A stretch of DNA of 32,000 nucleotides. Origin: an uncultured bacterium (GTDB lineage Bacteria; Margulisbacteria; WOR-1; CAVSGV01). The DNA is taken from positions 1,230,001 to 1,262,000 of the forward strand of contig OY969425.1 of assembly GCA_963699255.1 (NCBI GenBank), read 5' to 3'. Shown piece after piece: positions 12,947 to 31,736 of the stretch. Numbering within the stretch: the stretch's first letter is position 1; every line of letters begins with the position of its first letter. The translations under genes were made by a program, and so were the position numbers. The notes beneath the pieces are model-generated. The model did no database searches, was not told the origin of the DNA, and was given only the letters and a program-made list of their open reading frames with translations.

Positions 12947-13061
12947 AGATCTATAGACTATCTTCTCTGATTAAGTTCGGAGAATCCTTTTAGTACTATT
13001 TAACTTTAACTTGACGGCAACCCAGTTTTTTATTCTGTAAAGATATCTTATCACATATCCT

Positions 13062-13093: not shown

Positions 13094-13126
13094 GATTCAA
13101 ATGATTTTTCAACTCATCCCTTGTCC

Positions 13127-16100
13127 CTACTTAGCTTCCAGCTTATCCAGACGGGCTTTCAGCTCTTCATTGATCTTCTTCTGTTCATCGATCTGCCTTT
13201 GCTGCTCTTTTACCGCTTCAACAAGTATGGGTATTAACGTATCGGTATAAAGTGTGGTAGCATAAACTCTATCTTTTCCGTCCTTGCCTGTATAATGATT
13301 CTCGAGTTTTGTACTATCATCATATTTTACCGCTTCCGGCACTTGCTCTCCCACATCTTCGGCGATAAAACCAAGTGTATGCCCGCCGCCATGTTTTTCA
13401 TCCCAATCAAAAGAAACTCCTCTAAGGTTAAGTATCTTATCCAGGGCATCTTTTATTCCCACAACGTTCTTCTTCCATCTTATTGATGAACCTTTCCCGT
13501 AAGTACCGTGGACAGCATAAAAATCGCTACCTGGACTTTCAGCATATACACCATAAGCACTGCCGTAACCATAAGTACCAACATAGCCTACGCCATAGAC
13601 ACCCGCACTCCAGTTAGTATAGTCAGTATTCATACCGCTAACACCGCAGCCATTTGCCCCATGACCTATACCCAAGACACCGGTGCCCAATTTTCCGTTT
13701 TCGCCGATGATGGTTTCCGCTCCTTCGCGATAAGCATAGATGCAACGCCCGGTCTGATAAATGGCGGTTCCACTCCCGCTCAGCCCCGTTCCCATTACAG
13801 TTATTTGAGACTGCGGATTCGTCGTCCCGATACCGACATTGCCGTTATTATCAATGACCATTGATGTATTTGTAATACCAGTAGTGTAGTTATTTGAGGT
13901 TCCAAACATCAATTTTGAACCGCTATTATCAAAATAGGCAGCGATCCTGGCGTTTGGATTAGATCCAGAGCTGTACAGGAAATCTATAGGTGTATAACGT
14001 CCAGCGGTATAAGCACCGCTCAAAGAAAGCATACCTCTTGTTGCACCGGTAAATGTTGAAATTTGACTTCCTTCTACATTTAGTTTGGATGCCGGATTTG
14101 TCGTCCCGATGCCGACATTGCCGTTGTTTAGAATTGTTACTCTATCCGAATAATTATCTATATTGCCTTGCGAACTCAGTGTGCGCAAATAAAGATTACC
14201 GCCTGAAGAACCTCCCCAATCGATCACGCCGTTAGCAGAATTATAAACTAAATGGGTCCCGGAAAGCCGAACATTACCGGCAACATCTAATTTAGTTCCT
14301 GGACCAGTCGTACCGATGCCGACATTGCCGCCTGAAACAAACAAATCATTTGTGTCAACTTTTAAACCGCTTGAGTTCAAATAATACCCCGTGCCGGAAC
14401 ATGCGGTAGCTGTCGCTGATAAAATAGCATAATTTGCGCGTACAGAACACACGGTCGATGTTCCACTCAAATCTGCATAGTTAGCATCCCTCGCGTGACC
14501 CGTACATATGGAAGCTACCGATGATAATATTGCGTAATTTGCCTGCTTGGTACACAGGGTCGATATTCCACTAAGATCCGCATAGTTAGCATCTTTCGCA
14601 TGACCGGTACTGCAATCGCTGGCTGTCGCTGCTAATAATGCGTATGTCGCCTGCTTCGTACACATGGTCGATGTCCCGCTCAATGCCGCATAGTTAGCAT
14701 CTTTCGCATGGCCGGTACTGCAATCGCTGGCTGTCGCTGCTAATAATGCGTATGTCGCCTGCTTCGTACACATGGTCGATGTCCCGCTCAATGCCGCATA
14801 GCTCGCACTATTCGCACTGCCTGTACAGACACTCGATGTGCCTGATAAAGCTGCATATGGCGCTGATCCTGTACAGCTGGATGATGTTCCACTCAATGCC
14901 GCATAGCTCGCGCTATTCGCACTGCCTGTACATATACTTGATATCCCTGATAGGTTTGCATACTTGACTGATCCAGTACATGCCGATGATATCCCGCTAA
15001 GATCCGCGTACTTTACTGATCCTGTACAGGCACTGGATGTTCCTGATAACTCCGCATACTTTACAGATCCGGTACAGCTGGATGCTGTTCCACTCAATGC
15101 CGCATAGCTCGCGCTATTCGCGCTGCCCGTACATATACTTGATATCCCTGATAGTGTTGCATATATAGCATTAGTGCTCGTGGTCGATGTCCCGCTTAAT
15201 ACTGCGTAGCTGACGGTTCCTGTACACCTGGACGATGTTCCGCTTAGATCTGCATACTTTACAGAGCCGGTACAAGTGGATGCGGTTCCACTCAATACTG
15301 CATAATTAACAGTCCCTGTACATGTAGATGCGGTTCCACTCAATACTGCATAATTAACAGTCCCTGTACATGTAGATGCGGTTCCACTTAATACTGAATA
15401 GTTGGAAGTATTCGCGCTACCCGTACAAACACTCGATATCCCTGATAGTGTTGCATAGGAAACCGATCCAGTACAGCTGGATGATGTTCCACTCAATACC
15501 GCGTAGTTAACGGTCCCGGTACACATGGATGCTGTCCCGCTCAACACAGAGTAGTTGGAAGTATTCGCGCTACCCGTACAAACACTTGATGTCCCAGATA
15601 GATTTGCATAAATAGCATTAGTGCTGGTGGTAGATGTCCCGCTCAATACAGCGTAGTTGGATGTGTTCGCATTGCCTGTACAGACACTGGATGCCCCTGA
15701 CAGTGCCGCATAATTGGTTGATCCTGTACAGACAGATGCTGTTCCACTCAATGCTGCATAGTTGGATGTATTAGCGCTACCTGTACACACACTTGATGTC
15801 CCTGACAGTGCCGCATAATTGGTTGATCCGGTACAAATAGATGCTGTCCCGCTCAATGCTGCATAGTTCGCACTATTCGCACTGCCTGTACATACACTTG
15901 ATATCCCTGATAAATTTGCATACTTGGTTGATCCGGTACAAGTGGATGCGGTTCCACTCAATACTGCATAGTTAACAGTCCCGGTACAAGTAGATGCTGT
16001 TCCGCTCAACACAGAGTAGTTCGATGTATTAGCATTACCTGTGCATACACTTGATATACCTGATAGAGCTGCATAATTAGTTGATCCAGTACAGACAGAT

Positions 16101-18199
16101 GCTGTTCCACTCAATACCGCATAATTAACGGTCCCGGTACACATGGATGCGGTCCCACTTAATACTGAATAGTTGGAAGTATTCGCGCTACCCGTACAAA
16201 CACTTGATGTCCCAGATAGATTTGCATAAATAGCATTAGTGCTGGTGGTAGATGTCCCGCTCAATACCGCGTAATTGACGGTCCCTGTACACAGGGATGC
16301 GGTCCCGCTCAACACAGAGTAATTCGATGTATTCGCGTTGCCTGTGCATACACTGGATGTACCTGATAGCGCTGCATAAGTGACAGGCCCTGTACAACTG
16401 GATGCCGTTCCACTCAATACTGCATAGTTTGATGTATTCGCATTTCCTGTACACACACTTGATGTCCCTGACAGTGCCGCATAATTGGTTGATCCGGTAC
16501 AAATAGATGCTGTCCCGCTCAATGCTGCATAGTTCGCACTATTCGCACTGCCTGTACATACACTTGATATCCCTGATAAATTTGCATACTTGGTTGATCC
16601 GGTACAAGTGGATGCGGTTCCACTCAATACTGCATAGTTAACAGTCCCGGTACAAGTAGATGCTGTTCCGCTCAACACAGAGTAGTTCGATGTATTAGCA
16701 TTACCTGTGCATACACTTGATATACCTGATAGAGCTGCATAATTAGTTGATCCAGTACAGACAGATGCTGTTCCACTCAATACCGCATAATTAACGGTCC
16801 CGGTACACATGGATGCGGTCCCACTTAATACTGAATAGTTGGAAGTATTCGCGCTACCCGTACAAACACTTGATGTCCCAGATAGATTTGCATAAATAGC
16901 ATTAGTGCTGGTGGTCGACGTTCCACTCAATGCTGCATAGTTGGATGTATTCGCACTGCCTGTGCATACACTTGATATACCTGATAGTGCTGCATAATTG
17001 GTTGATCCGGTACAAATGGATGCTGTTCCACTCAATACAGCATAGTTGGATGTATTAGCGCTACCTGTACACACACTTGATGTCCCTGACAGTGCCGCAT
17101 AATTGGTTGATCCTGTACAGACAGATGCTGTTCCACTCAATGCTGCATACTTTACTGATCCCGTACAGACAGATGCTGTTCCGCTCAACACAGAGTAGTT
17201 CGATGTATTAGCATTACCTGTGCACACACTGGATATACCTGATAGAGCTGCATAATTAGTTGATCCGGTACAGCTTGATGCTGTTCCACTTAATGCTGCA
17301 TAGTTGGATGTACTCGCGCTACCTGTACATATACTGGATATACCTGATAGATTTGCATAAGTGACAGACCCTGTACAACTGGATGCTGTTCCACTCAATA
17401 CTGCATACTTTACTGATCCCGTACATGCGGATGATGTTCCGCTTAACACTGCATAGTTAACAGTCCCTGTACAGGCTGATGCTGTCCCACTCAATACCGC
17501 ATAGTTTGATGTATTCGCACTGCCTGTGCATACACTTGATATCCCCGATAAAGCTGCATACTTTACCGATCCCGTACACGCGGATGATGTTCCGCTCAAT
17601 GTCGCATAGTTCGCGGTTACTGATACTGATGTGGAGGTCACATTGATAAGCGCCGAGCCATCTCCGTAATATTTACCTGTCGACCCCTCTATGGATGCTC
17701 CCATAGCTCCCACCTTAAGATTCCCTGTTATATTGGCGTTTGCCGTCTGCGCTTCCGTTGTGTTCATGATGTACCTTAGATCCGCATCTCCCTCTGAGAT
17801 ACCTCCTCCGCCTCCACCCATCCCCGATTCTGATGATATCGCCCTGAACGCGTACGGTGCCGCCGCCAGCAGCTGGTGCGGCGTCATGTCTTCTCCCCCA
17901 ACGTTCAGCCCGATCTCATATTGATTGCTGAAATCTACGCTAGTGGGAATAGGACCCAGCATTTCATTGATGTTCCCCTGACTGTCAGGAGTAACCGTTG
18001 ATGTCTGCGACCACAGCGATGTCCCGCTGGATGAATCGTACAGCGTGAAGATTATCACCTTGGGGTCTGTGATAGGCAGGCCGCTTGTTTTGTCCAGTAA
18101 CCTACCTTGAAAATATATGGTGCGGGGGATAGCTGCAAGAACGGAGAAAGATAATATCGTCAGGAAAACAAAGAAAAAGAAAAACACCTTTTTTTGCAT
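13127..18199 (-). CDS. Giant secreted repeat protein A (1690 aa): conserved N-terminal module, about 63 single-Cys repeats, GNVGIGTT joints, C-terminal Peptidase_S74-like chaperone tip
   Basis: 5.07-kb uninterrupted ORF. GGAGG RBS. Sec-type signal peptide (MQKKVFFFFFVFLTILSFSVLA|A). The C-terminus SSIRWKKNVVGIKDALDKILNLRGVSFDW...GFIAEDVGEQVPEAV...coiled-coil matches the intramolecular-chaperone auto-processing domain of endosialidase/tail-fibre proteins. Confidence 0.88.
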   Translation of the reverse strand: MQKKVFFFFFVFLTILSFSVLAAIPRTIYFQGRLLDKTSGLPITDPKVIIFTLYDSSSGTSLWSQTSTVTPDSQGNINEMLGPIPTSVDFSNQYEIGLNVGGEDMTPHQLLAAAPYAFRAISSESGMGGGGGGISEGDADLRYIMNTTEAQTANANITGNLKVGAMGASIEGSTGKYYGDGSALINVTSTSVSVTANYATLSGTSSACTGSVKYAALSGISSVCTGSANTSNYAVLSGTASACTGTVNYAVLSGTSSACTGSVKYAVLSGTASSCTGSVTYANLSGISSICTGSASTSNYAALSGTASSCTGSTNYAALSGISSVCTGNANTSNYSVLSGTASVCTGSVKYAALSGTASVCTGSTNYAALSGTSSVCTGSANTSNYAVLSGTASICTGSTNYAALSGISSVCTGSANTSNYAALSGTSTTSTNAIYANLSGTSSVCTGSANTSNYSVLSGTASMCTGTVNYAVLSGTASVCTGSTNYAALSGISSVCTGNANTSNYSVLSGTASTCTGTVNYAVLSGTASTCTGSTKYANLSGISSVCTGSANSANYAALSGTASICTGSTNYAALSGTSSVCTGNANTSNYAVLSGTASSCTGPVTYAALSGTSSVCTGNANTSNYSVLSGTASLCTGTVNYAVLSGTSTTSTNAIYANLSGTSSVCTGSANTSNYSVLSGTASMCTGTVNYAVLSGTASVCTGSTNYAALSGISSVCTGNANTSNYSVLSGTASTCTGTVNYAVLSGTASTCTGSTKYANLSGISSVCTGSANSANYAALSGTASICTGSTNYAALSGTSSVCTGSANTSNYAALSGTASVCTGSTNYAALSGASSVCTGNANTSNYAVLSGTSTTSTNAIYANLSGTSSVCTGSANTSNYSVLSGTASMCTGTVNYAVLSGTSSSCTGSVSYATLSGISSVCTGSANTSNYSVLSGTASTCTGTVNYAVLSGTASTCTGTVNYAVLSGTASTCTGSVKYADLSGTSSRCTGTVSYAVLSGTSTTSTNAIYATLSGISSICTGSANSASYAALSGTASSCTGSVKYAELSGTSSACTGSVKYADLSGISSACTGSVKYANLSGISSICTGSANSASYAALSGTSSSCTGSAPYAALSGTSSVCTGSANSASYAALSGTSTMCTKQATYALLAATASDCSTGHAKDANYAALSGTSTMCTKQATYALLAATASDCSTGHAKDANYADLSGISTLCTKQANYAILSSVASICTGHARDANYADLSGTSTVCSVRANYAILSATATACSGTGYYLNSSGLKVDTNDLFVSGGNVGIGTTGPGTKLDVAGNVRLSGTHLVYNSANGVIDWGGSSGGNLYLRTLSSQGNIDNYSDRVTILNNGNVGIGTTNPASKLNVEGSQISTFTGATRGMLSLSGAYTAGRYTPIDFLYSSGSNPNARIAAYFDNSGSKLMFGTSNNYTTGITNTSMVIDNNGNVGIGTTNPQSQITVMGTGLSGSGTAIYQTGRCIYAYREGAETIIGENGKLGTGVLGIGHGANGCGVSGMNTDYTNWSAGVYGVGYVGTYGYGSAYGVYAESPGSDFYAVHGTYGKGSSIRWKKNVVGIKDALDKILNLRGVSFDWDEKHGGGHTLGFIAEDVGEQVPEAVKYDDSTKLENHYTGKDGKDRVYATTLYTDTLIPILVEAVKEQQRQIDEQKKINEELKARLDKLEAK
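13130..13489 (-). other. Peptidase_S74-like intramolecular chaperone (auto-processing) domain of giant A
   Basis: It shows the S-x-R-x-K-x-N...L..L..V.F.W...GFIA(E/Q).V....PE.V pattern, ending in a heptad-like DEQKKINEELKARLDKLEAK. Recognised from memory of the family; not verified by HMM. Confidence 0.7.
14387..17608 (-). repeat. In-frame tandem array of about 63 units of 48/57 nt (16/19 aa) in giant A
   Basis: Units counted by hand from the translation: YAxLSG[T/I]xSxCTG plus a 3-aa or 6-aa linker. Four Cys-less 15-aa units (YAVLSGTSTTSTNAI). Confidence 0.9.
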
Positions 18200-18260
18200 A
18201 ATAACCCTCCTGTGAATATCATGAATATCAATGGATTCCTTACTTGATCCCTAGCGGTAC

Positions 18261-18288
18261 ATTATATTATATAGGTGCGGAATTACAA
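18261..18288 (-). promoter_or_regulatory. Promoter copy 1 (giant A): TTGTAA-16-TATAAT
   Basis: Minus strand: -35 TTGTAA (18288-18283) and -10 TATAAT (18266-18261). The about 55-nt 5'UTR contains the tandem TGATATTCA x2 (18230-18213) and a GGAGG RBS. Near-identical copies lie upstream of giants B and C. Confidence 0.6.
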
Positions 18289-19355: not shown

Positions 19356-19384
19356 CCCATACCTCACACTTTGCATCTCTTGTT

Positions 19385-22300
19385 TTACTTTCCTTTCTTT
19401 TTATCTTGCACAGGAACCAGCGGAGGAATATCCGCGCGCACGGCTTCAACTCTCCAGTAGAATTTCTGGGAGGGGTTTCCGTCGGAGGTGGTGCTGACTG
19501 TAAATTTGCAGTTCTCGATCTTGCCTGCAACATAGAGCGGGGAATATCCGTCCACACAGGTCAGCTGGACAGTTCGCCCTTCTTTTCTGGTGAGGGCTTC
19601 AAAATATTCCGGCAGCTGTATTTCTTTCTTTGAACCGGACAGTTGGTCCTCACCCCGATAAAAGACCGCGTGTTCCGGACCCTCCAATGCGCCGTGAACT
19701 AATGTTTTGTTTTTCGGATCCAGCGGGTCAGGTATCTCAAAGTTCTTGTAGGTCGCGGCAAATCCGCCGGCAACCTGAAGCGTGTATTGTGGATTTGTCG
19801 TCCCGATGCCGACGTTGCCGCCTACAAAATAAGAATTACCGGAACGATTCAAAACAAATTTATCAACACCAGTTTGACCAATGGTAAGGCCACCTAGACC
19901 ATCGTAAACCATTTCATAATAGTTGGTGCCGCCATCAGTCAAACGAATACCATATCCGTAATTAGCTCCTGACCCGTTGACAGTTAGCTTCGCTCCCGGA
20001 CTCGTCGTCCCGATGGCCACGCGGCCGCTGTTGTAGTAAATATCACTTCCGCTCGTGCCCCATTGACCTGAAGGCCAAGAAGTTCTAGGAACCCCGCCAA
20101 GGGTAAGACCGTTTGTGTCAATTTTAACTGTGCCAGTGGTATTTGCACAGTTACTCGCAATTCTACACAGATCCGCATAGTTCGCGTCCCTCGCATGACC
20201 CGTACATGTGCTAGCTACCGATGATAATATTGCGTAATTTGCCTGCTTGGTACACAAGGTCGATATCCCGCTCAATACTGCATAGTTCGAGTCATTTGCA
20301 TGACCCGTACATGTGGTAGCTACTGATGATAATAACGCGTATGTTGCCTGCTTGGTACACAAGGTCGATATCCCGCTCAATACTGCATAGTTCGAGTCAT
20401 TTGCATGACCCGTACATGTGGTAGCTACTGATGATAATAACGCGTATGTTGCCTGCCTGGTACACATGGTAGATGTTCCACTCAGATCTGCATAGTTTGC
20501 ACTCTTAGCATTACCTGTACAGACACTTGATATCCCTGATAGGGCCGCATACGGTGCTGATCCTGTACATACAGATGCTATGCCACTCAACGCCGCATAG
20601 TTCGCACTCTTCGCACTACCTGTACAGACACTTGATATCCCTGATAGGGCCGCATACGGTGCTGATCCTGTACATACAGATGCTATGCCACTCAACGCCG
20701 CATAGTTCGCACTCGTCGCATTACCTGTACAGACACTTGATATCCCTGATAGGGCTGCATACGGCGCTGATCCACTACAGCTGGATGCTATTCCACTAAG
20801 ATTTGCATAGTTCGCACTCGTCGCATTACCTGTACAGACACTTGATATCCCTGATAGGGCTGCATACGGCGCTGATCCACTACAGCTGGATGCTATTCCA
20901 CTAAGATTTGCATAGTTCGCACTCTTCGCGCTACCCGTACAAATACTTGATATTCCTGACAGTGCTGCATACGGCGCTGATCCACTACAGCTGGAGGCTG
21001 TTCCACTCAATGCCGCATAGTTCGCGCTATTCGCGCTGCCTGTACATATACTTGATATCCCTGATAGTGTTGCATATATAGCATTAGTGCTCGTGGTCGA
21101 TGTCCCGCTCAATACTGCGTAGCTGACGGTTCCTGTACACCTGGACGATGTTCCGCTTAGATCTGCATACTTTACAGAGCCGGTACAAGTGGATGCGGTT
21201 CCACTCAATACTGCATAGTTAACAGTCCCGGTACAAGTAGATGCTGTTCCGCTTAACACTGCATAATTAACAGATCCCGTACAAGTGGATGCGGTCCCAC
21301 TTAATACTGAATAGTTGGAAGTATTCGCATTACCTGTACATACACTTGATATTCCTGATAGTGCTGCATACGGCGCTGATCCTGTACATATAGATGCTGT
21401 TCCACTCAATGCGGCATAGTTCGCACTATTCGCACTGCCTGTGCATACACTTGATGTCCCAGATAGATCCGCATACTTAGTCGATCCTGTGCAGACAGAT
21501 GCGGTCCCACTCAATACCGCATAATTGGATGTATTTGCACTACCTGTACAAATGCTTGATGTGCCTGATAGTGTTGCATACGGCGCTGATCCGGTACATA
21601 CAGATGCTGTTCCGCTCAATGCGGCATAGTTCGCACTATTCGCACTGCCTGTACAAATGCTTGATGTCCCTGATAGTGTTGCATAAACAGCATTAGTGCT
21701 GGTGGTCGATGTGCCACTCAATACTGCGTAGCCAGCTGTTTTAGCATTGCCTGAACATGTACTTGATATCCCAGACAGATCCGCATACTTAGTCGATCCT
21801 GTACAGACAGATGCGGTCCCACTTAATACTGAATAGTTGGAAGTATTCGCATTACCTGTACATACACTGGATGTCCCTGATAGTGCTGCATACTTGGTTG
21901 ATCCGGTACAGCTTGATGCTGTCCCGCTCAATACTGCATAGTTTGATGTATTCGCATTTCCTGTACAGACACTTGATGTCCCCGATAGATTTGCATAAAT
22001 AGCATTAGTGCTGGTGGTCGACGTCCCGCTCAATACCGCATAGTTGGATGTATTAGCATTACCTGTGCAGACACTTGATGTACCTGATAGTGTTGCATAA
22101 GGGACAGATCCTGTACATGTAGATGCTGTTCCACTCAATACCGCGTAATTGACGGTCCCTGTACACAGGGATGCGGTCCCGCTCAACACAGAGTAATTCG
22201 ATGTATTCGCGTTGCCTGTGCATACACTGGATGTACCTGATAGTGCTGCATACTTGGTTGATCCGGTACAGCTTGATGCTGTCCCGCTCAATACTGCATA

Positions 22301-24430
22301 GTTTGATGTATTCGCGCTACCCGTACAAACACTTGATGTCCCAGATAGTGTTGCATAAATAGCATTAGTGCTGGTGGTCGATGTACCACTCAATACTGCG
22401 TAGCCAGCTGTTTTAGCATTACCTGTGCAGACACTGGATGTCCCCGATAGATCCGCATACTTAGTCGATCCTGTACAGACAGATGCTGTTCCACTCAATA
22501 CTGCATAGTTAACAGTCCCGGTACACAGGGATGATGTCCCGCTCAACGCAGAGTAGTTTGATGTATTCGCATTTCCTGTACAGACACTTGATGTCCCTGA
22601 CAGTGCCGCATAATTGGTTGATCCCGTACAGACAGATGCTGTGCCGCTCAACACAGAGTAGTTCGATGTATTAGCATTACCTGTGCACACACTGGATATA
22701 CCTGATAGTGCTGCATAAATAGCATTAGTGCTGGTGGTCGATGTACCACTCAATACTGCGTAGCCAGCTGTTTTAGCATTACCTGTGCAGACACTGGATG
22801 TCCCCGATAGATCCGCATACTTAGTCGATCCTGTACATGTGGATGCTGTTCCACTCAATACTGCATAGTTAACAGTCCCGGTACACAGGGATGATGTCCC
22901 GCTCAACGCAGAGTAGTTTGATGTATTCGCATTTCCTGTACAGACACTTGATGTCCCTGACAGTGCCGCATAATTGGTTGATCCCGTACAGACAGATGCT
23001 GTGCCGCTCAACACAGAGTAGTTGGATGTATTAGCATTACCTGTGCACACACTGGATATACCTGATAGTGCTGCATAAATAGCATTAGTGCTGGTGGTCG
23101 ATGTCCCGCTCAATACCGCATAATTGACAGTCCCTGTACACAGGGATGCGGTCCCGCTCAACACAGAGTAATTCGATGTATTCGCACTGCCTGTGCATAC
23201 ACTGGATGTACCTGATAGTGTTGCATAAGGGACAGATCCTGTACAAATAGATGCTGTCCCACTCAACGCAGAGTAGTTTGATGTATTCGCATTTCCTGTA
23301 CAGACACTTGATATACCTGACAGTGCTGCATAATTGGTTGATCCGGTACAAATAGATGCTGTTCCACTCAATGCTGCATACTTTACTGATCCCGTACAGA
23401 CAGATGCTGTTCCGCTCAACACAGAGTAGTTCGATGTATTAGCATTACCTGTGCACACACTGGATATACCTGATAGAGCTGCATAATTAGTTGATCCGGT
23501 ACAGCTTGATGCTGTTCCACTTAATGCTGCATAGTTGGATGTACTCGCGCTACCTGTACATATACTGGATATACCTGATAGATTTGCATAAGTGACAGAC
23601 CCTGTACAACTGGATGCTGTTCCACTCAATACTGCATACTTTACTGATCCCGTACATGCGGATGATGTTCCGCTTAACACTGCATAGTTAACAGTCCCTG
23701 TACAGGCTGATGCTGTCCCACTCAATACCGCATAGTTTGATGTATTCGCACTGCCTGTGCATACACTTGATATCCCCGATAAAGCTGCATACTTTACCGA
23801 TCCCGTACACGCGGATGATGTTCCGCTCAATGTCGCATAGTTCGCGGTTACTGATACTGATGTGGAGGTCACATTGATAAGCGCCGAGCCATCTCCGTAA
23901 TATTTACCTGTCGACCCCTCTATGGATGCTCCCATAGCTCCCACCTTAAGATTCCCTGTTATATTGGCGTTTGCCGTTTGCGCTTCCGTTGTGTTCATGA
24001 TGTACCTTAGATCCGCATCTCCCTCTGAGATACCTCCTCCTCCTCCACCCATCCCCGATTCTGATGATATCGCCCTGAACGCGTACGGTGCCGCCGCCAG
24101 CAGCTGGTGCGGCGTCATGTCTTCTCCTCCAACGTTCAGCCCGATCTCATACTGATTGCTGAAATCTACGCTAGTGGGAATAGGACCCAGCATTTCATTG
24201 ATGTTCCCCTGACTGTCAGGAGTAACCGTTGATGTCTGCGACCACAGCGATGTCCCGCTGGATGAATCGTACAGCGTGAAGATTATCACCTTGGGGTCTG
24301 TGATAGGCAGGCCGCTTGTTTTGTCCAGTAACCTACCTTGAAAATATATGGTGCGGGGGATAGCTGCAAGAACGGAGAAAGATAATATCGTCAGGAAAAC
24401 AAAGAAAAAGAAAAACACCTTTTTTTGCAT
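19385..24430 (-). CDS. Giant secreted repeat protein B (1681 aa): same N-terminal module, about 72 single-Cys repeats, distinct C-terminal 'FEIPDPLDP...YFEAL' tip
   Basis: 5.05-kb uninterrupted ORF. The first about 359 aa are identical to giant A in the supplied translations. After the array come two GxVxIGTT joints and then a unique about 118-aa terminal domain. Confidence 0.88.
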   Translation of the reverse strand: MQKKVFFFFFVFLTILSFSVLAAIPRTIYFQGRLLDKTSGLPITDPKVIIFTLYDSSSGTSLWSQTSTVTPDSQGNINEMLGPIPTSVDFSNQYEIGLNVGGEDMTPHQLLAAAPYAFRAISSESGMGGGGGGISEGDADLRYIMNTTEAQTANANITGNLKVGAMGASIEGSTGKYYGDGSALINVTSTSVSVTANYATLSGTSSACTGSVKYAALSGISSVCTGSANTSNYAVLSGTASACTGTVNYAVLSGTSSACTGSVKYAVLSGTASSCTGSVTYANLSGISSICTGSASTSNYAALSGTASSCTGSTNYAALSGISSVCTGNANTSNYSVLSGTASVCTGSVKYAALSGTASICTGSTNYAALSGISSVCTGNANTSNYSALSGTASICTGSVPYATLSGTSSVCTGSANTSNYSVLSGTASLCTGTVNYAVLSGTSTTSTNAIYAALSGISSVCTGNANTSNYSVLSGTASVCTGSTNYAALSGTSSVCTGNANTSNYSALSGTSSLCTGTVNYAVLSGTASTCTGSTKYADLSGTSSVCTGNAKTAGYAVLSGTSTTSTNAIYAALSGISSVCTGNANTSNYSVLSGTASVCTGSTNYAALSGTSSVCTGNANTSNYSALSGTSSLCTGTVNYAVLSGTASVCTGSTKYADLSGTSSVCTGNAKTAGYAVLSGTSTTSTNAIYATLSGTSSVCTGSANTSNYAVLSGTASSCTGSTKYAALSGTSSVCTGNANTSNYSVLSGTASLCTGTVNYAVLSGTASTCTGSVPYATLSGTSSVCTGNANTSNYAVLSGTSTTSTNAIYANLSGTSSVCTGNANTSNYAVLSGTASSCTGSTKYAALSGTSSVCTGNANTSNYSVLSGTASVCTGSTKYADLSGISSTCSGNAKTAGYAVLSGTSTTSTNAVYATLSGTSSICTGSANSANYAALSGTASVCTGSAPYATLSGTSSICTGSANTSNYAVLSGTASVCTGSTKYADLSGTSSVCTGSANSANYAALSGTASICTGSAPYAALSGISSVCTGNANTSNYSVLSGTASTCTGSVNYAVLSGTASTCTGTVNYAVLSGTASTCTGSVKYADLSGTSSRCTGTVSYAVLSGTSTTSTNAIYATLSGISSICTGSANSANYAALSGTASSCSGSAPYAALSGISSICTGSAKSANYANLSGIASSCSGSAPYAALSGISSVCTGNATSANYANLSGIASSCSGSAPYAALSGISSVCTGNATSANYAALSGIASVCTGSAPYAALSGISSVCTGSAKSANYAALSGIASVCTGSAPYAALSGISSVCTGNAKSANYADLSGTSTMCTRQATYALLSSVATTCTGHANDSNYAVLSGISTLCTKQATYALLSSVATTCTGHANDSNYAVLSGISTLCTKQANYAILSSVASTCTGHARDANYADLCRIASNCANTTGTVKIDTNGLTLGGVPRTSWPSGQWGTSGSDIYYNSGRVAIGTTSPGAKLTVNGSGANYGYGIRLTDGGTNYYEMVYDGLGGLTIGQTGVDKFVLNRSGNSYFVGGNVGIGTTNPQYTLQVAGGFAATYKNFEIPDPLDPKNKTLVHGALEGPEHAVFYRGEDQLSGSKKEIQLPEYFEALTRKEGRTVQLTCVDGYSPLYVAGKIENCKFTVSTTSDGNPSQKFYWRVEAVRADIPPLVPVQDKKKGK
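19388..19741 (-). other. C-terminal tip domain of giant B (uncharacterised family; FEIPDPLDPKNKTLVHGALEGPEHAVFYRG...LPEYFEAL...)
   Basis: I recall the F-x-I-x-[HD]-P-L-D-P...E-[GS]-P...Y-[RN]-G...LP-[DE]-YFEAL pattern from the C-termini of fibre-like hypothetical proteins in other bacteria. No named family can be assigned without an HMM search. Confidence 0.45.
20132..23839 (-). repeat. In-frame tandem array of about 72 units (16/19 aa) in giant B
   Basis: Same unit consensus. Six Cys-less units. Contains 360-bp, 105-bp and 108-bp higher-order tandem duplications. Confidence 0.9.
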
Positions 24431-24491
24431 AATAACCCTCCTGTGAATATCATGAATATCAATGGATTCCTTACTTGATCCCTAGCGGTAC

Positions 24492-24519
24492 ATTATATTA
24501 TATATATGTGGAATTACAA
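24492..24519 (-). promoter_or_regulatory. Promoter copy 2 (giant B): TTGTAA-16-TATAAT
   Basis: -35 at 24519-24514 and -10 at 24497-24492. The 5'UTR direct repeat is at 24444-24461. Homology with copy 3 extends upstream to about 24553. Confidence 0.6.
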
Positions 24520-24750
24520 TAGACTTTTGGCTCAAAGAAAATAATAAAAACTGTGGGGAAATAATGGTAACCTAGAAGGTTATACATGTCACTAACACAA
24601 TAATAACGATAGGGGGAAATGATTTATTGCTGATGCTATCACTTTTCCCCATGATCTACCATCAAATATCAGTTAAACAGCCACCGCCAGAATGTGTGAG
24701 AGCTATCGCAAGGTATAAGGTGTGTTGACTATGATCCTTATCCCTTGGTT

Positions 24751-24814
24751 CTATTTCGCCTCCAGCTTATCCAGACGGGCTTTCAGCTCTTCATTAACCG
24801 TCTTCTGTTCATCA
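24751..24814 (-). pseudogene. Relic of an S74-type gene 3' end (encodes ...DEQKTVNEELKARLDKLEAK*), stranded downstream of giant C
   Basis: CTATTTCGCCTCCAGCTTATCCAGACGGGCTTTCAGCTCTTCATTAACCGTCTTCTGTTCATC aligns with 13127-13190, the last 20 codons plus stop of giant A. It lies 30 nt beyond the giant C stop codon. Confidence 0.85.
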
Positions 24815-24843
24815 CAAGCAATTCAATTAAATTCTGAAATTCA

Positions 24844-27800
24844 CTAATATTCCACAAGCACAAATCCTTGCGTGCCATTGCCGGCATTATGTTGATAGCC
24901 GCCGGAACCGCCGCCACCGTAGCCATAGGCAGCAGTAACGCTACCATCCTCAAAGTAGAAGCCGCCACCACCAAAAGCGCTTCCGCCGCCTCTACTTGTA
25001 TTTGCGCCGCAAGTATCCTGTCCTCTCCCGCCATTAACGCCGCCGGTACAGTTAGTGCATGTGCCACCATTACCGCCATGGCCACCGTTGCCGCCGGTAT
25101 AGCCGGAGTAGCCAGCGCTACCGCCACCAGCCACATAACTCCCAAAAGATGAATCACCGCCGGGATTCCCCCACTCAGTAGCGCCAAGTTGACCGCCGGT
25201 GCCACCCTGGCCAACACCTACCGAAATACTTGCTCCGGGAGTTACACTCACACTTTCTGCTATAACAGCGGCCCCGCCGCCGCCACCGCCACCGTAATAG
25301 TTGCGGCCTGTGCCGCCGCCACCACCACCACCGCACATTGTAACCCATACTGTTTTCACTCCACTGGGTACAGTGAATGTTCCGCCAGATATGAAACGCT
25401 GTTTGCCGTGTGAAGAAATAAGTGTGCCATTATTATAGATTCCACCTGATGCATTTATCGCTCCGCCCTGAACATCTACTTTATATCCTGGATTCGTCGT
25501 CCCGATTCCGACATTGCCAACAGAATCTATGACCATTGATGTATTTGTAATACCAGTAGTGTAGTTATTTGAGGTTCCAAACATCAATTTTGAACCGCTA
25601 TTATCAAAATAGGCAGCGATCCTGGCGTTTGGATTAGATCCAGAGCTGTACAGGAAATCTATAGGTGTATAACGTCCAGCGGTATAAGCACCGCTCAAAG
25701 AAAGCATACCTCTTGTTGCACCGGTAAATGTTGAAATTTGACTTCCTTCTACATTTAGTTTGGATGCCGGATTTGTCGTCCCGATGCCGACATTGCCGTT
25801 GTTTAGAATTGTTACTCTATCCGAATAATTATCTATATTGCCTTGCGAACTCAGTGTGCGCAAATAAAGATTACCACCTGAAGAACCTCCCCAATCGATC
25901 ACGCCGTTAGCAGAATTATAAACTAAATGGGTCCCGGAAAGCCGAACATTACCGGCAACATCTAATTTAGTTCCTGGACCAGTCGTACCGATGCCGACAT
26001 TGCCGCCTGAAACAAACAAATCATTTGTGTCAACTTTTAAACCGCTTGAGTTCAAATAATACCCGGTGCCGGAACATGCGGTAGCTGTCGCTGATAAAAT
26101 AGCATAATTTGCGCGTACAGAACACACTGTCGATGTTCCACTCAAATCTGCATAGTTAGCATCCCTCGCGTGACCCGTACATATGGAAGCTACCGATGAT
26201 AATATTGCGTAATTTGCCTGCTTGGTACACAGGGTCGATGTCCCGCTCAATGCCGCATAGTTAGCATCTTTCGCATGACCGGTACTGCAATCGCTGGCTG
26301 TCGCTGCTAATAATGCGTATGTCGCCTGCTTCGTACACATGGTCGATGTCCCGCTCAATGCCGCATAACTCGCACTATTCGCACTGCCTGTACAGACACT
26401 CGATGTGCCTGATAAAGCTGCATATGGCGCTGATCCTGTACAGCTGGATGATGTTCCACTCAATGCCGCATAGCTCGCGCTATTCGCACTGCCTGTACAT
26501 ATACTTGATATCCCTGATAGGTTTGCATACTTGACTGATCCAGTACATGCCGATGATATCCCGCTAAGATCCGCGTACTTTACTGATCCTGTACAGGCAC
26601 TGGATGTTCCTGATAACTCCGCATACTTTACAGATCCGGTACAGGCGGATGATGTTCCACTCAATGCCGCATAGCTCGCGCTGTTCGCACTGCCTGTACA
26701 TATACTTGATATCCCTGATAGTGTTGCATATATAGCATTAGTGCTCGTGGTCGATGTCCCGCTTAATACTGCGTAGCTGACGGATCCTGTACACCTGGAC
26801 GATGTTCCGCTTAATGTCGAATAAGAAACAGCCCCAGTACAGCTGGATGATGTTCCACTCAATACTGCATAGTTAACAGTCCCGGTACAAGTAGATGCTG
26901 TTCCGCTTAACACTGAATAATTAACAGATCCCGTACAAGTGGATGCGGTCCCACTTAATACTGAATAGTTGGAAGTATTCGCGCTACCCGTACAAACACT
27001 TGATATCCCTGATAGTGTTGCATAGGAAACCGATCCAGTACATGTGGATGCTGTTCCACTCAATACCGCATAATTAACGGTCCCGGTACACATGGATGCT
27101 GTCCCGCTCAACACAGAGTAGTTGGAAGTATTCGCGCTACCCGTACAAATGCTTGATGTCCCTGATAGTGTTGCATATATAGAATTAGTGCTGGTGGTCG
27201 ATGTCCCGCTTAATACCGCATAGTTAACAGTCCCTGTACACATGGATGCTGTTCCACTTAACACTGCATAGTTGGCACTATTCGCACTGCCTGTACAAAT
27301 GCTTGATGTCCCTGATAGTGTTGCATAAACAGCATTAGTGCTGGTGGTCGATGTGCCACTCAATACTGCGTAGCCAGCTGTTTTAGCATTGCCTGAACAT
27401 GTACTTGATATCCCAGACAGATCCGCATACTTAGTCGATCCTGTGCAGACAGATGCGGTCCCACTCAATACCGCATAATTGGATGTATTTGCACTACCTG
27501 TACAAATGCTTGATGTGCCTGATAGTGTTGCATAAATAGAATTAGTGCTGGAGGTTGATGTCCCGCTCAATACCGCATAGTTAACAGTCCCTGTACACAT
27601 GGATGCTGTTCCGCTTAACACTGAATAATTAACAGATCCCGTACAAGTGGATGCTGTCCCACTCAACACAGAGTAGTTGGATGTATTAGCGCTACCTGTA
27701 CAGACGCTTGATATACCTGATAGTGCTGCATAATTGGTTGATCCGGTACAGACAGATGCTGTTCCACTCAATGCTGCATAGTTGGATGTATTAGCGCTGC

Positions 27801-29400
27801 CTGTGCATACACTTGATATCCCTGATAAATTTGCATACTTGGTTGATCCGGTACAAACAGATGCGCTCCCACTCAATACCGCATAATTGGAAGTATTCGC
27901 ATTGCCTGTACACACACTTGATATACCTGATAGTGCTGCATAATTGGTTGATCCGGTACAGCTTGATGCTGTCCCACTCAACGCAGAGTAGTTGGATGTA
28001 TTAGCGCTGCCTGTGCACACACTTGATATCCCTGATAAATTTGCATACTTGGTTGATCCGGTACAAATAGATGCTGTTCCACTCAATGCTGCATAGTTGA
28101 CGGTCCCGGTACATATAGATGCTGTCCCACTCAACACAGAGTAGTTCGATGTATTAGCGCTGCCTGTGCATACACTTGATATACCTGATAAAGCTGCATA
28201 ATTGGTTGATCCGGTACAAATGGATGCTGTTCCACTCAATGTGGCATAGTTCGCACTATTCGCACTGCCTGTGCACACACTTGATGTCCCTGACAGTGCC
28301 GCATAATTGGTTGATCCGGTACAAATAGATGCTGTTCCACTCAATGCTGCATACTTTACTGATCCCGTACAGACAGATGCTGTTCCGCTCAACACAGAGT
28401 AGTTCGATGTATTAGCATTACCTGTGCACACACTGGATATACCTGATAGAGCTGCATAATTAGTTGATCCGGTACAGCTTGATGCTGTTCCACTTAATGC
28501 TGCATAGTTGGATGTACTCGCGCTACCTGTACATATACTGGATATACCTGATAGATTTGCATAAGTGACAGACCCTGTACAACTGGATGCTGTTCCACTC
28601 AATACTGCATACTTTACTGATCCCGTACATGCGGATGATGTTCCGCTTAACACTGCATAGTTAACAGTCCCTGTACAGGCTGATGCTGTCCCACTCAATA
28701 CCGCATAGTTTGATGTATTCGCACTGCCTGTGCATACACTTGATATCCCCGATAAAGCTGCATACTTTACCGATCCCGTACACGCGGATGATGTTCCGCT
28801 CAATGTCGCATAGTTCGCGGTTACTGATACTGATGTGGAGGTCACATTGATAAGCGCCGAGCCATCTCCGTAATATTTACCTGTCGACCCCTCTATGGAT
28901 GCTCCCATAGCTCCCACCTTAAGATTCCCTGTTATATTGGCGTTTGCCGTCTGCGCTTCCGTTGTGTTCATGATGTACCTTTGGTCCGCATTCCCTTGGG
29001 CGATACCTCCTCCTCCTCCCATCCCCGATTCTGATGATATCGCCCTGAACGCGTACGGTGCCGCCGCCAGCAGCTGGTGCGGCGTCATGTCTTCTCCCCC
29101 AACGTTCAGCCCGATCTCATATTGATTGCTGAAATCTACGCTCGTGGGAATGGGACCCAGCATTTCATTGATGTTCCCCTGACTGTCAGGAGTAACCGTT
29201 GATGTCTGCGACCACAGCGATGTCCCGCTGGATGAATCGTACAGCGTGAAGATTATCACCTTGGGGTCTGTGATAGGCAGGCCGCTTGTTTTGTCCAGTA
29301 ACCTACCTTGAAAATATATGGTGCGGGGGATAGCTGCAAGAACGGAGAAAGATAATATCGTCAGGAAAACAAAGAAAAAGAAAAACACCTTTTTTTGCAT
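24844..29400 (-). CDS. Giant secreted repeat protein C (1518 aa): same N-terminal module, about 54 single-Cys repeats, same pre-tip region as A, glycine-rich tail-fibre-type tip
   Basis: 4.56-kb uninterrupted ORF. The N-terminus is identical to A and B except for a short patch (GMGGGGGIAQGNADQRY). The C-terminus RFISGGTFTVPSGVKTVWVTMCGGGGGGG...VSVTPGASISVGVGQGG...GFVLVEY matches the glycine-rich domain seen at phage tail-fibre C-termini. Confidence 0.88.
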   Translation of the reverse strand: MQKKVFFFFFVFLTILSFSVLAAIPRTIYFQGRLLDKTSGLPITDPKVIIFTLYDSSSGTSLWSQTSTVTPDSQGNINEMLGPIPTSVDFSNQYEIGLNVGGEDMTPHQLLAAAPYAFRAISSESGMGGGGGIAQGNADQRYIMNTTEAQTANANITGNLKVGAMGASIEGSTGKYYGDGSALINVTSTSVSVTANYATLSGTSSACTGSVKYAALSGISSVCTGSANTSNYAVLSGTASACTGTVNYAVLSGTSSACTGSVKYAVLSGTASSCTGSVTYANLSGISSICTGSASTSNYAALSGTASSCTGSTNYAALSGISSVCTGNANTSNYSVLSGTASVCTGSVKYAALSGTASICTGSTNYAALSGTSSVCTGSANSANYATLSGTASICTGSTNYAALSGISSVCTGSANTSNYSVLSGTASICTGTVNYAALSGTASICTGSTKYANLSGISSVCTGSANTSNYSALSGTASSCTGSTNYAALSGISSVCTGNANTSNYAVLSGSASVCTGSTKYANLSGISSVCTGSANTSNYAALSGTASVCTGSTNYAALSGISSVCTGSANTSNYSVLSGTASTCTGSVNYSVLSGTASMCTGTVNYAVLSGTSTSSTNSIYATLSGTSSICTGSANTSNYAVLSGTASVCTGSTKYADLSGISSTCSGNAKTAGYAVLSGTSTTSTNAVYATLSGTSSICTGSANSANYAVLSGTASMCTGTVNYAVLSGTSTTSTNSIYATLSGTSSICTGSANTSNYSVLSGTASMCTGTVNYAVLSGTASTCTGSVSYATLSGISSVCTGSANTSNYSVLSGTASTCTGSVNYSVLSGTASTCTGTVNYAVLSGTSSSCTGAVSYSTLSGTSSRCTGSVSYAVLSGTSTTSTNAIYATLSGISSICTGSANSASYAALSGTSSACTGSVKYAELSGTSSACTGSVKYADLSGISSACTGSVKYANLSGISSICTGSANSASYAALSGTSSSCTGSAPYAALSGTSSVCTGSANSASYAALSGTSTMCTKQATYALLAATASDCSTGHAKDANYAALSGTSTLCTKQANYAILSSVASICTGHARDANYADLSGTSTVCSVRANYAILSATATACSGTGYYLNSSGLKVDTNDLFVSGGNVGIGTTGPGTKLDVAGNVRLSGTHLVYNSANGVIDWGGSSGGNLYLRTLSSQGNIDNYSDRVTILNNGNVGIGTTNPASKLNVEGSQISTFTGATRGMLSLSGAYTAGRYTPIDFLYSSGSNPNARIAAYFDNSGSKLMFGTSNNYTTGITNTSMVIDSVGNVGIGTTNPGYKVDVQGGAINASGGIYNNGTLISSHGKQRFISGGTFTVPSGVKTVWVTMCGGGGGGGTGRNYYGGGGGGGAAVIAESVSVTPGASISVGVGQGGTGGQLGATEWGNPGGDSSFGSYVAGGGSAGYSGYTGGNGGHGGNGGTCTNCTGGVNGGRGQDTCGANTSRGGGSAFGGGGFYFEDGSVTAAYGYGGGGSGGYQHNAGNGTQGFVLVEY
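24847..25398 (-). other. Glycine-rich C-terminal tip domain of giant C
   Basis: G-x-F-T-V-P-x-G-V...V-x-x-x-G-G-G-G-G-G...V-T-P-G...V-G-x-G-G pattern, recognised from memory of 'glycine-rich domain-containing' tail-fibre proteins. Not verified by HMM. Confidence 0.6.
26061..28812 (-). repeat. In-frame tandem array of about 54 units (16/19 aa) in giant C
   Basis: Same unit consensus. Four Cys-less units (STSSTNSI / STTSTNAV / STTSTNSI / STTSTNAI variants). Confidence 0.9.
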
Positions 29401-29461
29401 AATAACCCCCTGTGAATATCATGAATATCAATGGATTCCTTACTTGATCCCTATGCGGTAC

Positions 29462-29489
29462 ATTATATTATATATATGTGGAATTACAA
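29462..29489 (-). promoter_or_regulatory. Promoter copy 3 (giant C): TTGTAA-16-TATAAT
   Basis: -35 at 29489-29484 and -10 at 29467-29462. The 5'UTR direct repeat is at 29413-29430. The RBS variant is GGGGG rather than GGAGGG. Confidence 0.6.
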
Positions 29490-29570
29490 TAGACTTTTGG
29501 CTCAAAGAAAATAATAAAAACTGTGGGGGGAAAATAAGGAAGAAGATGTCTTTGCTTGTCATAAACAAAA

Positions 29571-29625: not shown

Positions 29626-30633
29626 TTATATTATTTCCGATGCCTGTTTTACCGGCTCCTCAGGACCGCCCGTGTAACAGATCGAGAAATAATGCGTTGA
29701 TAGCTCAGAAAAATTAGGATCCTGCCTGTACGCGTAATCGAACCTGAACCCGTCCAGCGTAAGGCCTATGCCAAGCAGATAATTCGTTGATGTCCCTGTG
29801 GTCCCCTCGTCGATCGACGCCGCTTTCTGGTCGATCCCGGCCCTCAGCGCGAGAAGTGGTATTACCTGCCATTCGGCTCCGCCGTGTGCCACCATATCCC
29901 TTCCTCCGTCCAGGTCGAAGTCCGTGTCCAGCGCGACCAGCACATTTTCAATAGCTTTATATGAACATCCCAGCTTGAACAGCCTGGGAAGCGTTTCTTT
30001 CTCCCCGGTGGACCAATCAAGCGATCCAGCCACATTTTGAAGTGTGGCTCCAACGGTCAACCTGCTGGTCGGTGCATACATCGCCCCAAGGTCCAGCTCC
30101 ATTCCGCTTGCGGTCGGTGCATTGCTTATGCTCCCCGAAAGCCCCTGTGAAAGAAACTTTACGTTAGCCCCTACCCCGACTTGCTCGCTGATATCTTTAC
30201 CATATGAGAGGATGAACATCTGGTTCGTATAATCCATTGCTCCGCCTTCGGTTGTTACTCCCCCTACATAATATATATGTGAGCCTGCCGGTGTTGATGC
30301 CCCAACATATCCGATCCCTAAATGACCGTATTGCGTCGGATATGAAAATCCGATCAGCTTGTAGTCTACGGTGTTCAATATCTGTGAACTCATGCTTACA
30401 AAAGAGAGGCTGTTCTGCCTGGCAAGCCCTGCCGGATTCGTGAATATGGCCGATGCGTCATCAGCAAGGCCCGTGTATGCTCCCCCAAGCGCTATCGGGC
30501 GCGCTCCCATCCCTACTTCTGTTATGTCTACCGAGGGTGCGTTGACTGAGCCGTCATCAGCAAAGGATGCGGATATCATCAATATTACCAATGATACCGC
30601 TAAAAATGTTAACTTTAGAACCGTATTCCTCAT
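29626..30633 (-). CDS. Outer-membrane beta-barrel protein, PorV/PorQ-like (FadL-fold) family
   Basis: The start is taken at the ATG at 30633 (GGGGGGAG RBS; signal peptide MRNTVLKLTFLAVSLVILMISASFA). VGMGARPIALGGAYTGLADDASAIFTNPAGLA matches the conserved N-terminal motif of PorV/PorQ and UPF0164-type barrels. Alternating beta-strand pattern and a C-terminal aromatic-rich end. Confidence 0.55.
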   Translation of the reverse strand: MRNTVLKLTFLAVSLVILMISASFADDGSVNAPSVDITEVGMGARPIALGGAYTGLADDASAIFTNPAGLARQNSLSFVSMSSQILNTVDYKLIGFSYPTQYGHLGIGYVGASTPAGSHIYYVGGVTTEGGAMDYTNQMFILSYGKDISEQVGVGANVKFLSQGLSGSISNAPTASGMELDLGAMYAPTSRLTVGATLQNVAGSLDWSTGEKETLPRLFKLGCSYKAIENVLVALDTDFDLDGGRDMVAHGGAEWQVIPLLALRAGIDQKAASIDEGTTGTSTNYLLGIGLTLDGFRFDYAYRQDPNFSELSTHYFSICYTGGPEEPVKQASEII

Positions 30634-30836
30634 TTGCTCCCCCCTAAAAACCGAAAAGAACATTGCCACCTCTAGCTTTGTTCTTTTCTTGCAGATGGCT
30701 GCCCCGCTTTCCGGGGCCTTACACTTATATAATCGGGTTATGGGGGATCAAACTTGCATGAATTTCATGGAATATAGAGAGGGATTCTATTGATAAAAAC
30801 AGGAAAAAATGAAAAAAACGCAGAACTAGAGAAGGG

Positions 30837-31736
30837 TTAGTCCATTACCGCCATCTGGCCTTTGGAAAGTATCTTGCTGCTCGAGGTTATCAGATATATG
30901 TAAGCTCCATTCGACACATATTCTCCGAAATCGTTCTTACCATCCCAGTAGACATTGTTCAGGCCCGCTTTTCCGCCTTCTTCTCCGGGATCAAATGACT
31001 TCTGACACACCGCTTTGCCGGTTATGTCATAAATGATCAGCTTTGTGCCGGTATCGGAAGAAAGAGTGTACATTATCGTTGTTCCTTCACCATGCCTCGG
31101 CCTGAATGGATTCGGCACGTTCTTTGGCCTGCTTGTGATAGAAAGTATGCCGGTATGCTTAAGCTGCTTGATCCCGAAGTAGTCGGCTGAACCTCCAAGA
31201 TTTGTGGCTCGGATCCCTACCTCATGGGTTACACCGCTAAGTTCTGTCGCCGGGCTGAACGAAAAATGGTATTTCTTAGGTCCGGTCTTTATCAGGCCTA
31301 CAAGATATTTGCTGCCGTCAACATAGACCTCAACGCTTGTTGAACCCGGTGCCAAGCACTCGTCAAGTATATCAGCTGAAATAACAGGTCTTTCGGAAAT
31401 GGACGTTATCGATGAGGCGGTGCTGCCATCTATGTTGACGTCATAGATGTAGATATCATCGAAAAGCGTGTAAACACAGCCTGAACGCAGCGAATAGCTA
31501 CTGCTCTCCGATGTCCCTACGGGGGATACCTGCCCGACACTGGAATAAAGTTGATAGCTTGATGAAGATGAACTCCCCATGGTGCCTCCGCTGCTAACGG
31601 TTCCTGCCGGCATTGTATAATTTGGGGTTGGCGCTACTGTCGCAAAAGAACCTGTCACGCCAGCGAAGGAAAAAAGGAACAGTAAAAGGCCTGGAATTAT
31701 AAATGATATTAATTTGTGGTTCGATGTTTTTAACAT
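30837..31736 (-). CDS. Secreted protein with a C-terminal FlgD-Ig-like / T9SS-type sorting domain
   Basis: 299 aa with a signal peptide. The C-terminal [35 protein letters not shown]...[22 protein letters not shown] matches the FlgD_ig / Por_Secre_tail pattern. The N-terminal two-thirds are unrecognised. Confidence 0.6.

Follow-up and report, generated by a model that had tools for sequence, protein, structure and literature searches.

A stranded S74-type 3′ end behind a giant fibre gene suggests replacement of its tip by a glycine-rich cassette in an uncultured Margulisbacteria genome

The subject of this study is a short relic of 63 nucleotides (nt) that lies just downstream of a giant fibre gene in an uncultured bacterium (GTDB lineage Bacteria; Margulisbacteria; WOR-1; CAVSGV01), together with the exchange of fibre tips that it may record. 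The window analysed, i.e. the whole stretch of 32,000 nt taken from contig OY969425.1 (GenBank assembly GCA_963699255.1, positions 1,230,001 to 1,262,000 of the forward strand), is bacterial chromosome, with the genes ilvD, ilvB, ilvN, ilvC, dxr, thrS, infC and rplT at 2.8–12.7 kb. Three giant genes, here called A, B and C, are arranged in tandem on the minus strand between this housekeeping-gene block and genes related to the type IX secretion system (T9SS) at 29.6–31.7 kb.

The giants are built on one three-part plan, with an anchor domain that stays constant at the N-terminus, a shaft made of repeats, and a module at the C-terminus that can be exchanged. The signal peptide and the N-domain are common to A, B and C (97–99% identity at the DNA level), and the shafts of all three are arrays of Cys-containing repeats of about 35 amino acids (aa; NYA.LSG.SS.CTG). 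In A, the shaft is followed by a stalk with three GNVGIGTT(N/G)P motifs, then by a Tyr/Gly-rich region and finally by a Peptidase_S74 chaperone domain. Giant C has the same stalk followed by a Gly_rich_2 domain, whereas B lacks that stalk and has an unlike one leading to a phrog_28536-like tip, with a Kelch-repeat gene starting 8 nt later. Every giant is preceded by a conserved upstream unit of 89–128 nt that carries a promoter-like TTGTAA-16-TATAAT. Judged by this architecture, the three tandem genes probably encode secreted, trimeric surface fibres of the mosaic adhesive trimer (MAT) type.

An original prediction made from the DNA letters had claimed that a sequence shortly behind C is near-identical to the last 20 codons plus the stop of A, and that the glycine-rich tip of C had taken the place of an S74-type tip. 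The first of these claims is fully borne out, with coordinates that proved right to within 1 nt: when the A region was aligned with the C region (blastn), A 13189-13113 matched 24813-24737 with 87% identity over 77 nt (E = 6.7e-22). A 53-nt core is 94% identical, and an exact match of 35 nt (13137-13171 and 24761-24795) occurs at only these two places in the window, where none was expected from 100 shuffles. The relic encodes DEQKTVNEELKARLDKLEAK and a stop, the counterpart in A DEQKKINEELKARLDKLEAK and a stop; three of the six differences in 63 nt are synonymous and the other three fall within two non-synonymous codons. It begins exactly 30 nt past the TAG of C (24846-24844), in the same orientation and in frame with C, from which it is separated by TAG, TGA and TGA. 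The weak similarity that had been predicted just past the relic's stop is likewise present, as about 14 nt (CAAGGGAT.AG), after which the resemblance to A ends. A tblastn search with the whole 120-aa S74 region of A matched only residues 101–120 at the relic and recovered no further S74 traces in the window. The relic holds only the terminal coil that follows the Pfam core and is a fragment, not an S74 domain; judged by its sequence, it is non-coding and genuinely derives from an S74-type 3′ end. The 30-nt spacer that separates it from C presumably arrived with the tip cassette. This spacer holds three GAATT(T/G) units at 9–10-nt spacing (TGAATTTCAGAATTTAATTGAATTG).

The upstream limit of the difference between A and C is equally sharp. 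Over the stalk, A 14692-13854 and C 26367-25529 align without gaps and with 10 mismatches in 839 nt, none of them in the last 347 nt. Identity then breaks at 25528/25529 in C (13853 in A), about 10 nt upstream of the third GNVGIGTTNP motif. Seven mismatches fall within A 13853-13832, six of them in the 10 nt just before the motif (IDNN versus IDSV); 17 identical bases of the motif core follow, and beyond these A and C are unrelated. The original prediction was thus right about a near-identical stalk giving way to unrelated tips but had placed the break after the third motif. Identity within the motif is uninformative on descent because its eight copies in A, B and C hardly differ from one another in DNA sequence. 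In 27 database relatives, Gly_rich_2 is preceded by its own GNVGIGTTxPxxKLxVxG motif and neck; motif and neck therefore appear native to Gly_rich_2 cassettes, and the incoming segment would include them. On the best reading, that segment comprises 715 nt (25528-24814: motif, neck, Gly-rich domain, stop and a 30-nt tail) and replaced the 664 nt equivalent to A 13853-13190, as against the 675 and 624 bp of the original prediction. Cassette boundaries at these loci lie at or close to GNVGIGTT motifs. Inside the otherwise near-identical A/C block, 7 of 13 nt differ where the repeat array ends (14565-14577 versus 26240-26252), which suggests a short tract converted from a different repeat unit. The coordinates of all features are collected in table 1.

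Table 1. Coordinates of the giant genes and of the segments compared between A and C (positions in the window).
Feature	Position	Strand	Description
Giant C	24844..29400	(-)	1518 aa; signal peptide, MAT-like N-domain, Cys-containing ~35-aa repeat array, stalk, Gly-rich tip
Giant B	19385..24430	(-)	1681 aa; N-terminus and array as in A and C; other stalk; third kind of tip (phrog_28536-like)
Giant A	13127..18199	(-)	1690 aa; architecture as in C, but C-terminal end is Peptidase_S74
Upstream unit of B	24431..24558	(-)	98% identical to 29401-29528 (upstream of C); last 89 nt match 18200-18288 (upstream of A)
Stalk of C	25529..26367	(-)	collinear with stalk of A, offset 11675; 98.8% identity; last 347 nt identical
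Stalk of A	13854..14692	(-)	counterpart of C 25529-26367
A segment without counterpart in C	13190..13853	(-)	own copy of motif 3, Tyr/Gly-rich mature tip, most of S74 (Pfam core ~13325-13489)
Putative incoming tip cassette of C	24844..25528	(-)	third GNVGIGTTNP motif (25490-25518), neck (YKVDVQGGAINASGGIYNNGTLIS), Gly_rich_2 (~24847-25383), stop
S74 3′-end relic	24751..24813	(-)	20 codons and TAG; non-coding; without start codon; behind three in-frame stops
Post-stop continuation of relic similarity	24737..24750	(-)	matches A downstream (CAAGGGAT.AG); all similarity to A ends here
Spacer	24814..24843	(-)	30 nt between stop of C and relic; no counterpart in A
A template for relic	13113..13189	(-)	last 20 codons and stop of A, plus 14 nt downstream
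Unique intergenic stretch	24559..24736	(-)	~180 nt between relic and upstream unit of B

The two tips belong to different families. The tip of A matches PF13884 (Peptidase_S74) with 46.4 bits for the whole protein and 50.3 bits for the tip alone (cut-off 22), and it also matches phrog_33119, ‘long tail fiber distal subunit’. Sequence comparison with solved structures gave no S74 match. The available part of the MAT paper (PMC10769870) gives the S74 cleavage motif as SDxxxK, with Ser as the nucleophile and Lys as the base. The corresponding position reads S-S-I-R-W-K in A and S-D-I-R-L-K in the paralogues on an unrelated bacterial contig, here called L006 (Ga0315291_10000061), that carries four tandem S74 fibre genes next to dnaX; Ser and Lys are thus kept in A and Asp is changed to Ser. 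The tip of C matches PF21722 (Gly_rich_2; E = 7.9e-12, 46.1 bits versus a cut-off of 24.3) over profile positions 4–225 of 226; the match extends to the C-terminus, and the tip has its own stop. Its structural model, built from a 28-sequence alignment, has a predicted local distance difference test score (pLDDT) of 78.9, and Foldseek places it close to the fibre of cyanophage Pam3 (7ypx_A; TMq 0.68, E = 7.7e-9) as well as to a Bxb1 tail-tip chain (9d93_Qb; E = 7.6e-8), with the ALK/LTK glycine-rich domain lower in the list. A phmmer comparison with Pam3 7yfw (E = 0.004) is full length and runs to the common C-terminal ...VEY/...VQY. The modelled C tip is best described as a complete phage-type distal fibre domain without an S74 chaperone. 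No homology, including remote homology, was found between the A and C tip proteins (BLASTP E = 9.8).

Evidence that fibre tips are exchanged also at a neighbouring locus comes from a related strain, represented by a metagenomic contig (L008; JGI 3300049914, Ga0494770_0002958) that was found via the neighbouring ilvD gene and shares 89–92% identity with the window between ilvD and thrS. Where the window has giant A, this contig has the 3′ end of a fibre gene with another stalk and another tip, and neither an S74 domain nor a relic is present at this orthologous locus; homology to the window resumes about 50 nt past the stop of A (L008 parts 2-946 and 1002-1154). The L008 tip has the neck of C (YKLDVSGAMNASGGVYDNGTRIS; YK[LV]DV.G..NASGG.Y.NGT.IS) but another terminal domain. 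With a different tip at locus A in L008, tips therefore turn over between closely related genomes. A search for alleles of A and C had been proposed in the original prediction, and its outcome is divided, with another tip found at locus A but no allele of locus C that carries S74. L009 and one other contig of related strains, being too short or devoid of DNA, added no allele. The A/C stalk module is joined to S74, Gly_rich_2 or other tips in many metagenomic proteins. We considered whether this stalk might be a native ‘S74 stalk’ but rejected the idea, as its database relatives carry S74, Cys-rich or other tips.

The relic itself, both boundaries, the nature of each tip and the turnover at locus A in a related strain are observed; we infer the direction and the mechanism of the exchange as well as a later phase of gene conversion. 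Replacement of an S74 tip by a Gly-rich cassette inside gene C is, in our estimation, the probable course of events. Gene C would once have ended like A, in an S74 domain that acts as a folding chaperone and cleaves itself, preceded by the region for receptor binding. Recombination would then have installed a foreign, self-contained cassette made up of the last GNVGIGTTNP motif, the neck, the Gly_rich_2 domain, its own stop and about 30 nt. The left crossover may have used homology in or just before the conserved stalk/motif, and the right end would be an illegitimate join 63 nt before the old stop, which would have removed some 660 nt of the former tip and left its final 20 codons behind as untranslated DNA. 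Gene conversion between the paralogues could subsequently have kept the stalks of A and C near-identical up to the end of homology, while the relic, being outside the conversion tracts, may have drifted to about 10% divergence or may already have differed that much. The right junction thus appears to lie inside the old 3′ end, as had been predicted, but the abrupt limit on the left probably marks where heterology stopped gene conversion and need not be the original crossover.

The relic is significantly more diverged from A than is the stalk, with 6 differences in 63 nt against 0 in 347 nt (Fisher p = 1e-5) or 10 in 839 nt (p = 4e-4), which corresponds to 9.5% against 0–1%. It follows that either the stalks were homogenized later or the relic derives from an S74 allele about 10% diverged from A. 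The divergence of the relic happens to equal that of this genome from strain L008.

Several points weigh against the replacement scenario. The divergence of the relic demands an extra assumption, whether later homogenization of the stalks or a divergent source allele. The right junction is without recognizable microhomology, and the collections searched contained neither an allele of locus C with an intact S74 tip nor a donor copy of the Gly-rich cassette. Moreover, the DNA of the S74 terminal coil is conserved even in the unrelated contig L006: the coil (DEQKKINEELKARLDKLE) of one of its genes is 93% identical to that of A over 59 nt of DNA, although the S74 domains are only about 40% identical as proteins. 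An A-like copy was therefore not necessarily the source of the relic; what ties the relic to A is the shared position of the stop and the shared bases behind it. The L006 positions concerned are 12587-12645 and 5849-5922, and the likeness of the one coil to that of A could reflect a conserved 3′ joint or a horizontally shared end.

The most serious competitor, which we nevertheless consider rather unlikely, holds that C was always Gly-tipped and that a fourth tandem paralogue with an S74 tip, once situated between C and B, was lost through one illegitimate deletion of about 5 kb extending from 30 nt after the stop of C to 63 nt before the stop of the lost gene. Such a deletion would leave the same sequence, so that the expression ‘direct footprint of tip-cassette replacement’ used in the original prediction was too strong, even if replacement remains the best-supported reading; sequence alone cannot separate the two. 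A tandem array is prone to rearrangement, the deletion too is just one illegitimate event, the 9.5% divergence of the relic would suit a more distant paralogue, and the approximately 180 nt behind the relic (24736-24559), which are unlike the sequence downstream of A, could be the lost gene's own flank. However, tandem paralogues sharing kilobases would be expected to recombine through their homology and so to yield a hybrid gene, not a clean excision. There is also no trace of the conserved upstream unit of the lost gene, and the stalk common to A and C, but not B, makes these two look like natural sisters differing only in the tip. A further possibility, improbable in our opinion, is that a circular or linear donor with a stalk fragment and the Gly-rich tip entered by a single homologous crossover of the kind known from rhs loci, shunting the whole old S74 tip downstream, where a later deletion trimmed it to 63 nt. 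C-terminal displacement that leaves dissociated tips downstream is documented for rhs loci (PMC2935791), and a conserved motif delimits the variable tip here as well; yet no duplicated stalk or core fragment precedes the relic, the last 20 codons alone survive, and two events would be needed where one suffices. This is a mechanistic variant of the replacement scenario, under which the conclusion of the original prediction would still hold.

One might also suspect an artefact or a coincidence, namely that the assembly is chimeric or that a patch of A was copied ectopically, and that C never had an S74 gene. Three highly repetitive genes invite misassembly, and the giants are absent from the protein collection searched (see below), which left no independent assembly of them for comparison. 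Against this, mismatches to A flank the 35-nt exact core of the relic on either side, so that it cannot be a k-mer join onto A, just 13 nt are shared at the boundary at 24813 (the 5′ edge of the relic), and even if A and C had swapped tips by way of the 839-nt repeat, the relic would still follow the Gly-rich tip. In the ilvD region, 2325 nt of the window (10706-13030) are matched with 100% identity by an independent Logan contig. We regard such an origin as very improbable. Hardly more credible, in our judgement, is the more ambitious idea that the locus houses a standing tip-switching arrangement, in which the 35-nt match of the relic, together with the GNVGIGTTNP joint, serves as a downstream homology arm for double crossover or gene conversion and whole tips are moved between paralogues or taken up from outside. 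The conserved coil DNA in L006 would fit a shared 3′ joint of this kind. If this were true, the relic would be no mere dead scar, and a bacterium would here have a standing means of switching the tips of a surface fibre by recombination.

The closest counterparts of the giants may be the MAT fibres of Bdellovibrio bacteriovorus. In the available part of their paper (2024, PMC10769870), Caulton et al. report a trimeric fibre with a signal peptide and a conserved N-domain, list 13 S74 and 8 non-S74 tips, and suggest that independently folding non-S74 tips ‘may aid tip swapping’. [quoted passage not shown] In both groups some paralogues terminate in an S74 chaperone, autoproteolytic in MAT fibres and putatively so in A, and others in tips of another type. 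For MAT fibres, an exchange of tips has been suggested as a means of diversification. The combination of a constant N-terminus with variable tips (S74 in A, Gly_rich_2 in C, phrog_28536-like in B) is itself a MAT trait. The N-domain of the window (17630-18199 and equivalents in B and C) matches NF053851 (Bdello_MAT_N) weakly (E = 9e-4, 19 bits, cut-off 60), and because this threshold is not reached we refer to the genes as MAT-like. The same profile is matched by all five members of the N-domain alignment (A6), with a best E-value of 3.5e-11, and the N-domain model is beta-rich over residues 1–90 with a pLDDT of 65–86. The differences are also clear: the available part of PMC10769870 does not describe a shaft of Cys-containing ~35-aa repeats for Bdellovibrio and proposes tip swapping without mention of a genomic swap scar. 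The giants, on the other hand, are three adjacent near-identical paralogues, and their host encodes a PorV-family T9SS protein next door, with nothing to indicate a predator.

Fibres with one constant end and exchangeable tips are the way in which phages, tailocins and predatory bacteria retarget, and receptor-binding modules with a C-terminal S74 intramolecular chaperone are known from phage tail fibres and tailspikes, including endosialidase K1F, T5 pb1 and others. The giants resemble these in the matches of the A tip to PF13884 and phrog_33119, in the Pam3/Bxb1 fold predicted for the C tip, and in exchange at conserved joints. Unlike phage fibres, they are chromosomal and signal-peptide-bearing and are situated among ilv, dxr and thrS with no phage genes nearby, and the exchange in C appears to have removed the chaperone domain rather than to have used it as a downstream homology arm.

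The likeness to rhs/cdiA C-terminal displacement, in which dissociated tips are left downstream (Jackson et al. 2009, PMC2935791), consists in a conserved core that ends at a short conserved motif, in an acquired tip with its own stop that replaces the old one, and in old tip sequence lying silent downstream. At giant C, however, only 63 nt of the old tip are left, without any fragment of stalk, motif or core, and the mechanism was likely replacement with deletion, not single-crossover insertion. The giants have neither toxin/immunity pairs nor YD, PxxxxDPxGL or VENN motifs, no Rhs or CdiA domains were found in A, B or C with Pfam, and the gene after B is a Kelch-repeat gene. Tailocin tail fibres offer another parallel: according to the available part of a study of carotovoricin in Pectobacterium (PMC13195805), distal parts of chromosomal, phage-derived fibre genes are exchanged between strains by homologous recombination. 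Those fibres sit, as described there, in the gene cluster of a tailocin particle, whereas the giants are free-standing secreted fibres.

Exchange of phage-type fibre modules and C-terminal displacement are both well known, and the locus is a fresh example that introduces no new mechanism. Its interest would be that tip swapping in bacterial MAT-type fibres has so far been proposed, in the available part of the MAT paper, from protein structures only. The locus may provide a nucleotide-level example, with both boundaries visible, of a chaperone-dependent S74 ending exchanged for a self-folding Gly-rich tip, and thus a clean footprint of an S74-to-non-S74 swap in a MAT-like bacterial fibre, combined with later homogenization of paralogues. 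The joints located at the GNVGIGTTNP motif and the neck could guide the engineering of chimeric fibres.

Close relatives of the giants proved scarce in the databases. An exact look-up in the protein collection returned none of giants A, B and C, the Kelch protein or the PorV-like protein, and a scan of the genome collection for the N-domain yielded two distant loci only (L002 and L003). In protein searches for close relatives, the best match to the Gly-rich tip of C had 57% identity over 43% of the query, while the best identities reached 74% with the shared stalk, 53% with the A tip and 41% with the N-domain. Scanning metagenomes for DNA encoding NEELKARLDKLE gave four unrelated loci, and a scan of viral contigs gave no match. 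A tblastn search with the C tip against phage genomes also gave no match, where the low-complexity filter probably masks the tip. No S74 remnants were found beside four other Gly_rich_2 fibre genes (L010–L013).

The region between C and B shows little sign of a present role: no Rfam family matched the relic or the intergenic sequence, and folding is not unusual (z = -0.54). Neither the 180 nt after the relic nor the region after the Kelch gene is similar to the region downstream of A. A scan of window positions 24400-24900 called no terminator-like site between the stop of C and the promoter-like site of B; transcription of C may continue into B or may end at a terminator of non-canonical type. 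Downstream of A, a hairpin with a T7 run (~13055-13085) can be seen by eye, but the hairpin was not called by the scan.

Some further features of the giants and their surroundings deserve mention. The shaft repeat has a unit of about 105 nt (35 aa), with one Cys per half-repeat, and extends over 14400-17640, 20160-23870 and 26075-28830 on the minus strand; the number of NYA-type motifs varies among the paralogues (46, 41 and 37). Single copies of the unit are present in distant relatives (P0128 and P0129), while the L003 locus has collagen-like repeats at the equivalent place, and giant B shows a weak EsV_1_7_cys match. Directly upstream of the giant array are two genes related to T9SS, one for a PorV-family protein (29626-30669) and one whose product carries a T9SS sorting domain (30837-31736). 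The Kelch-repeat gene after B (18363-19376, minus strand) is frameshifted: its open reading frame of 261 aa ends at TAA TAA (18591), and the Kelch repeats (…QVTAAANW…NKMWVMGG…DVW.S.DG..W) run on in another frame to about 18363, the shift occurring just after ‘DGVTW’. This gene is either a pseudogene or affected by a sequencing error.

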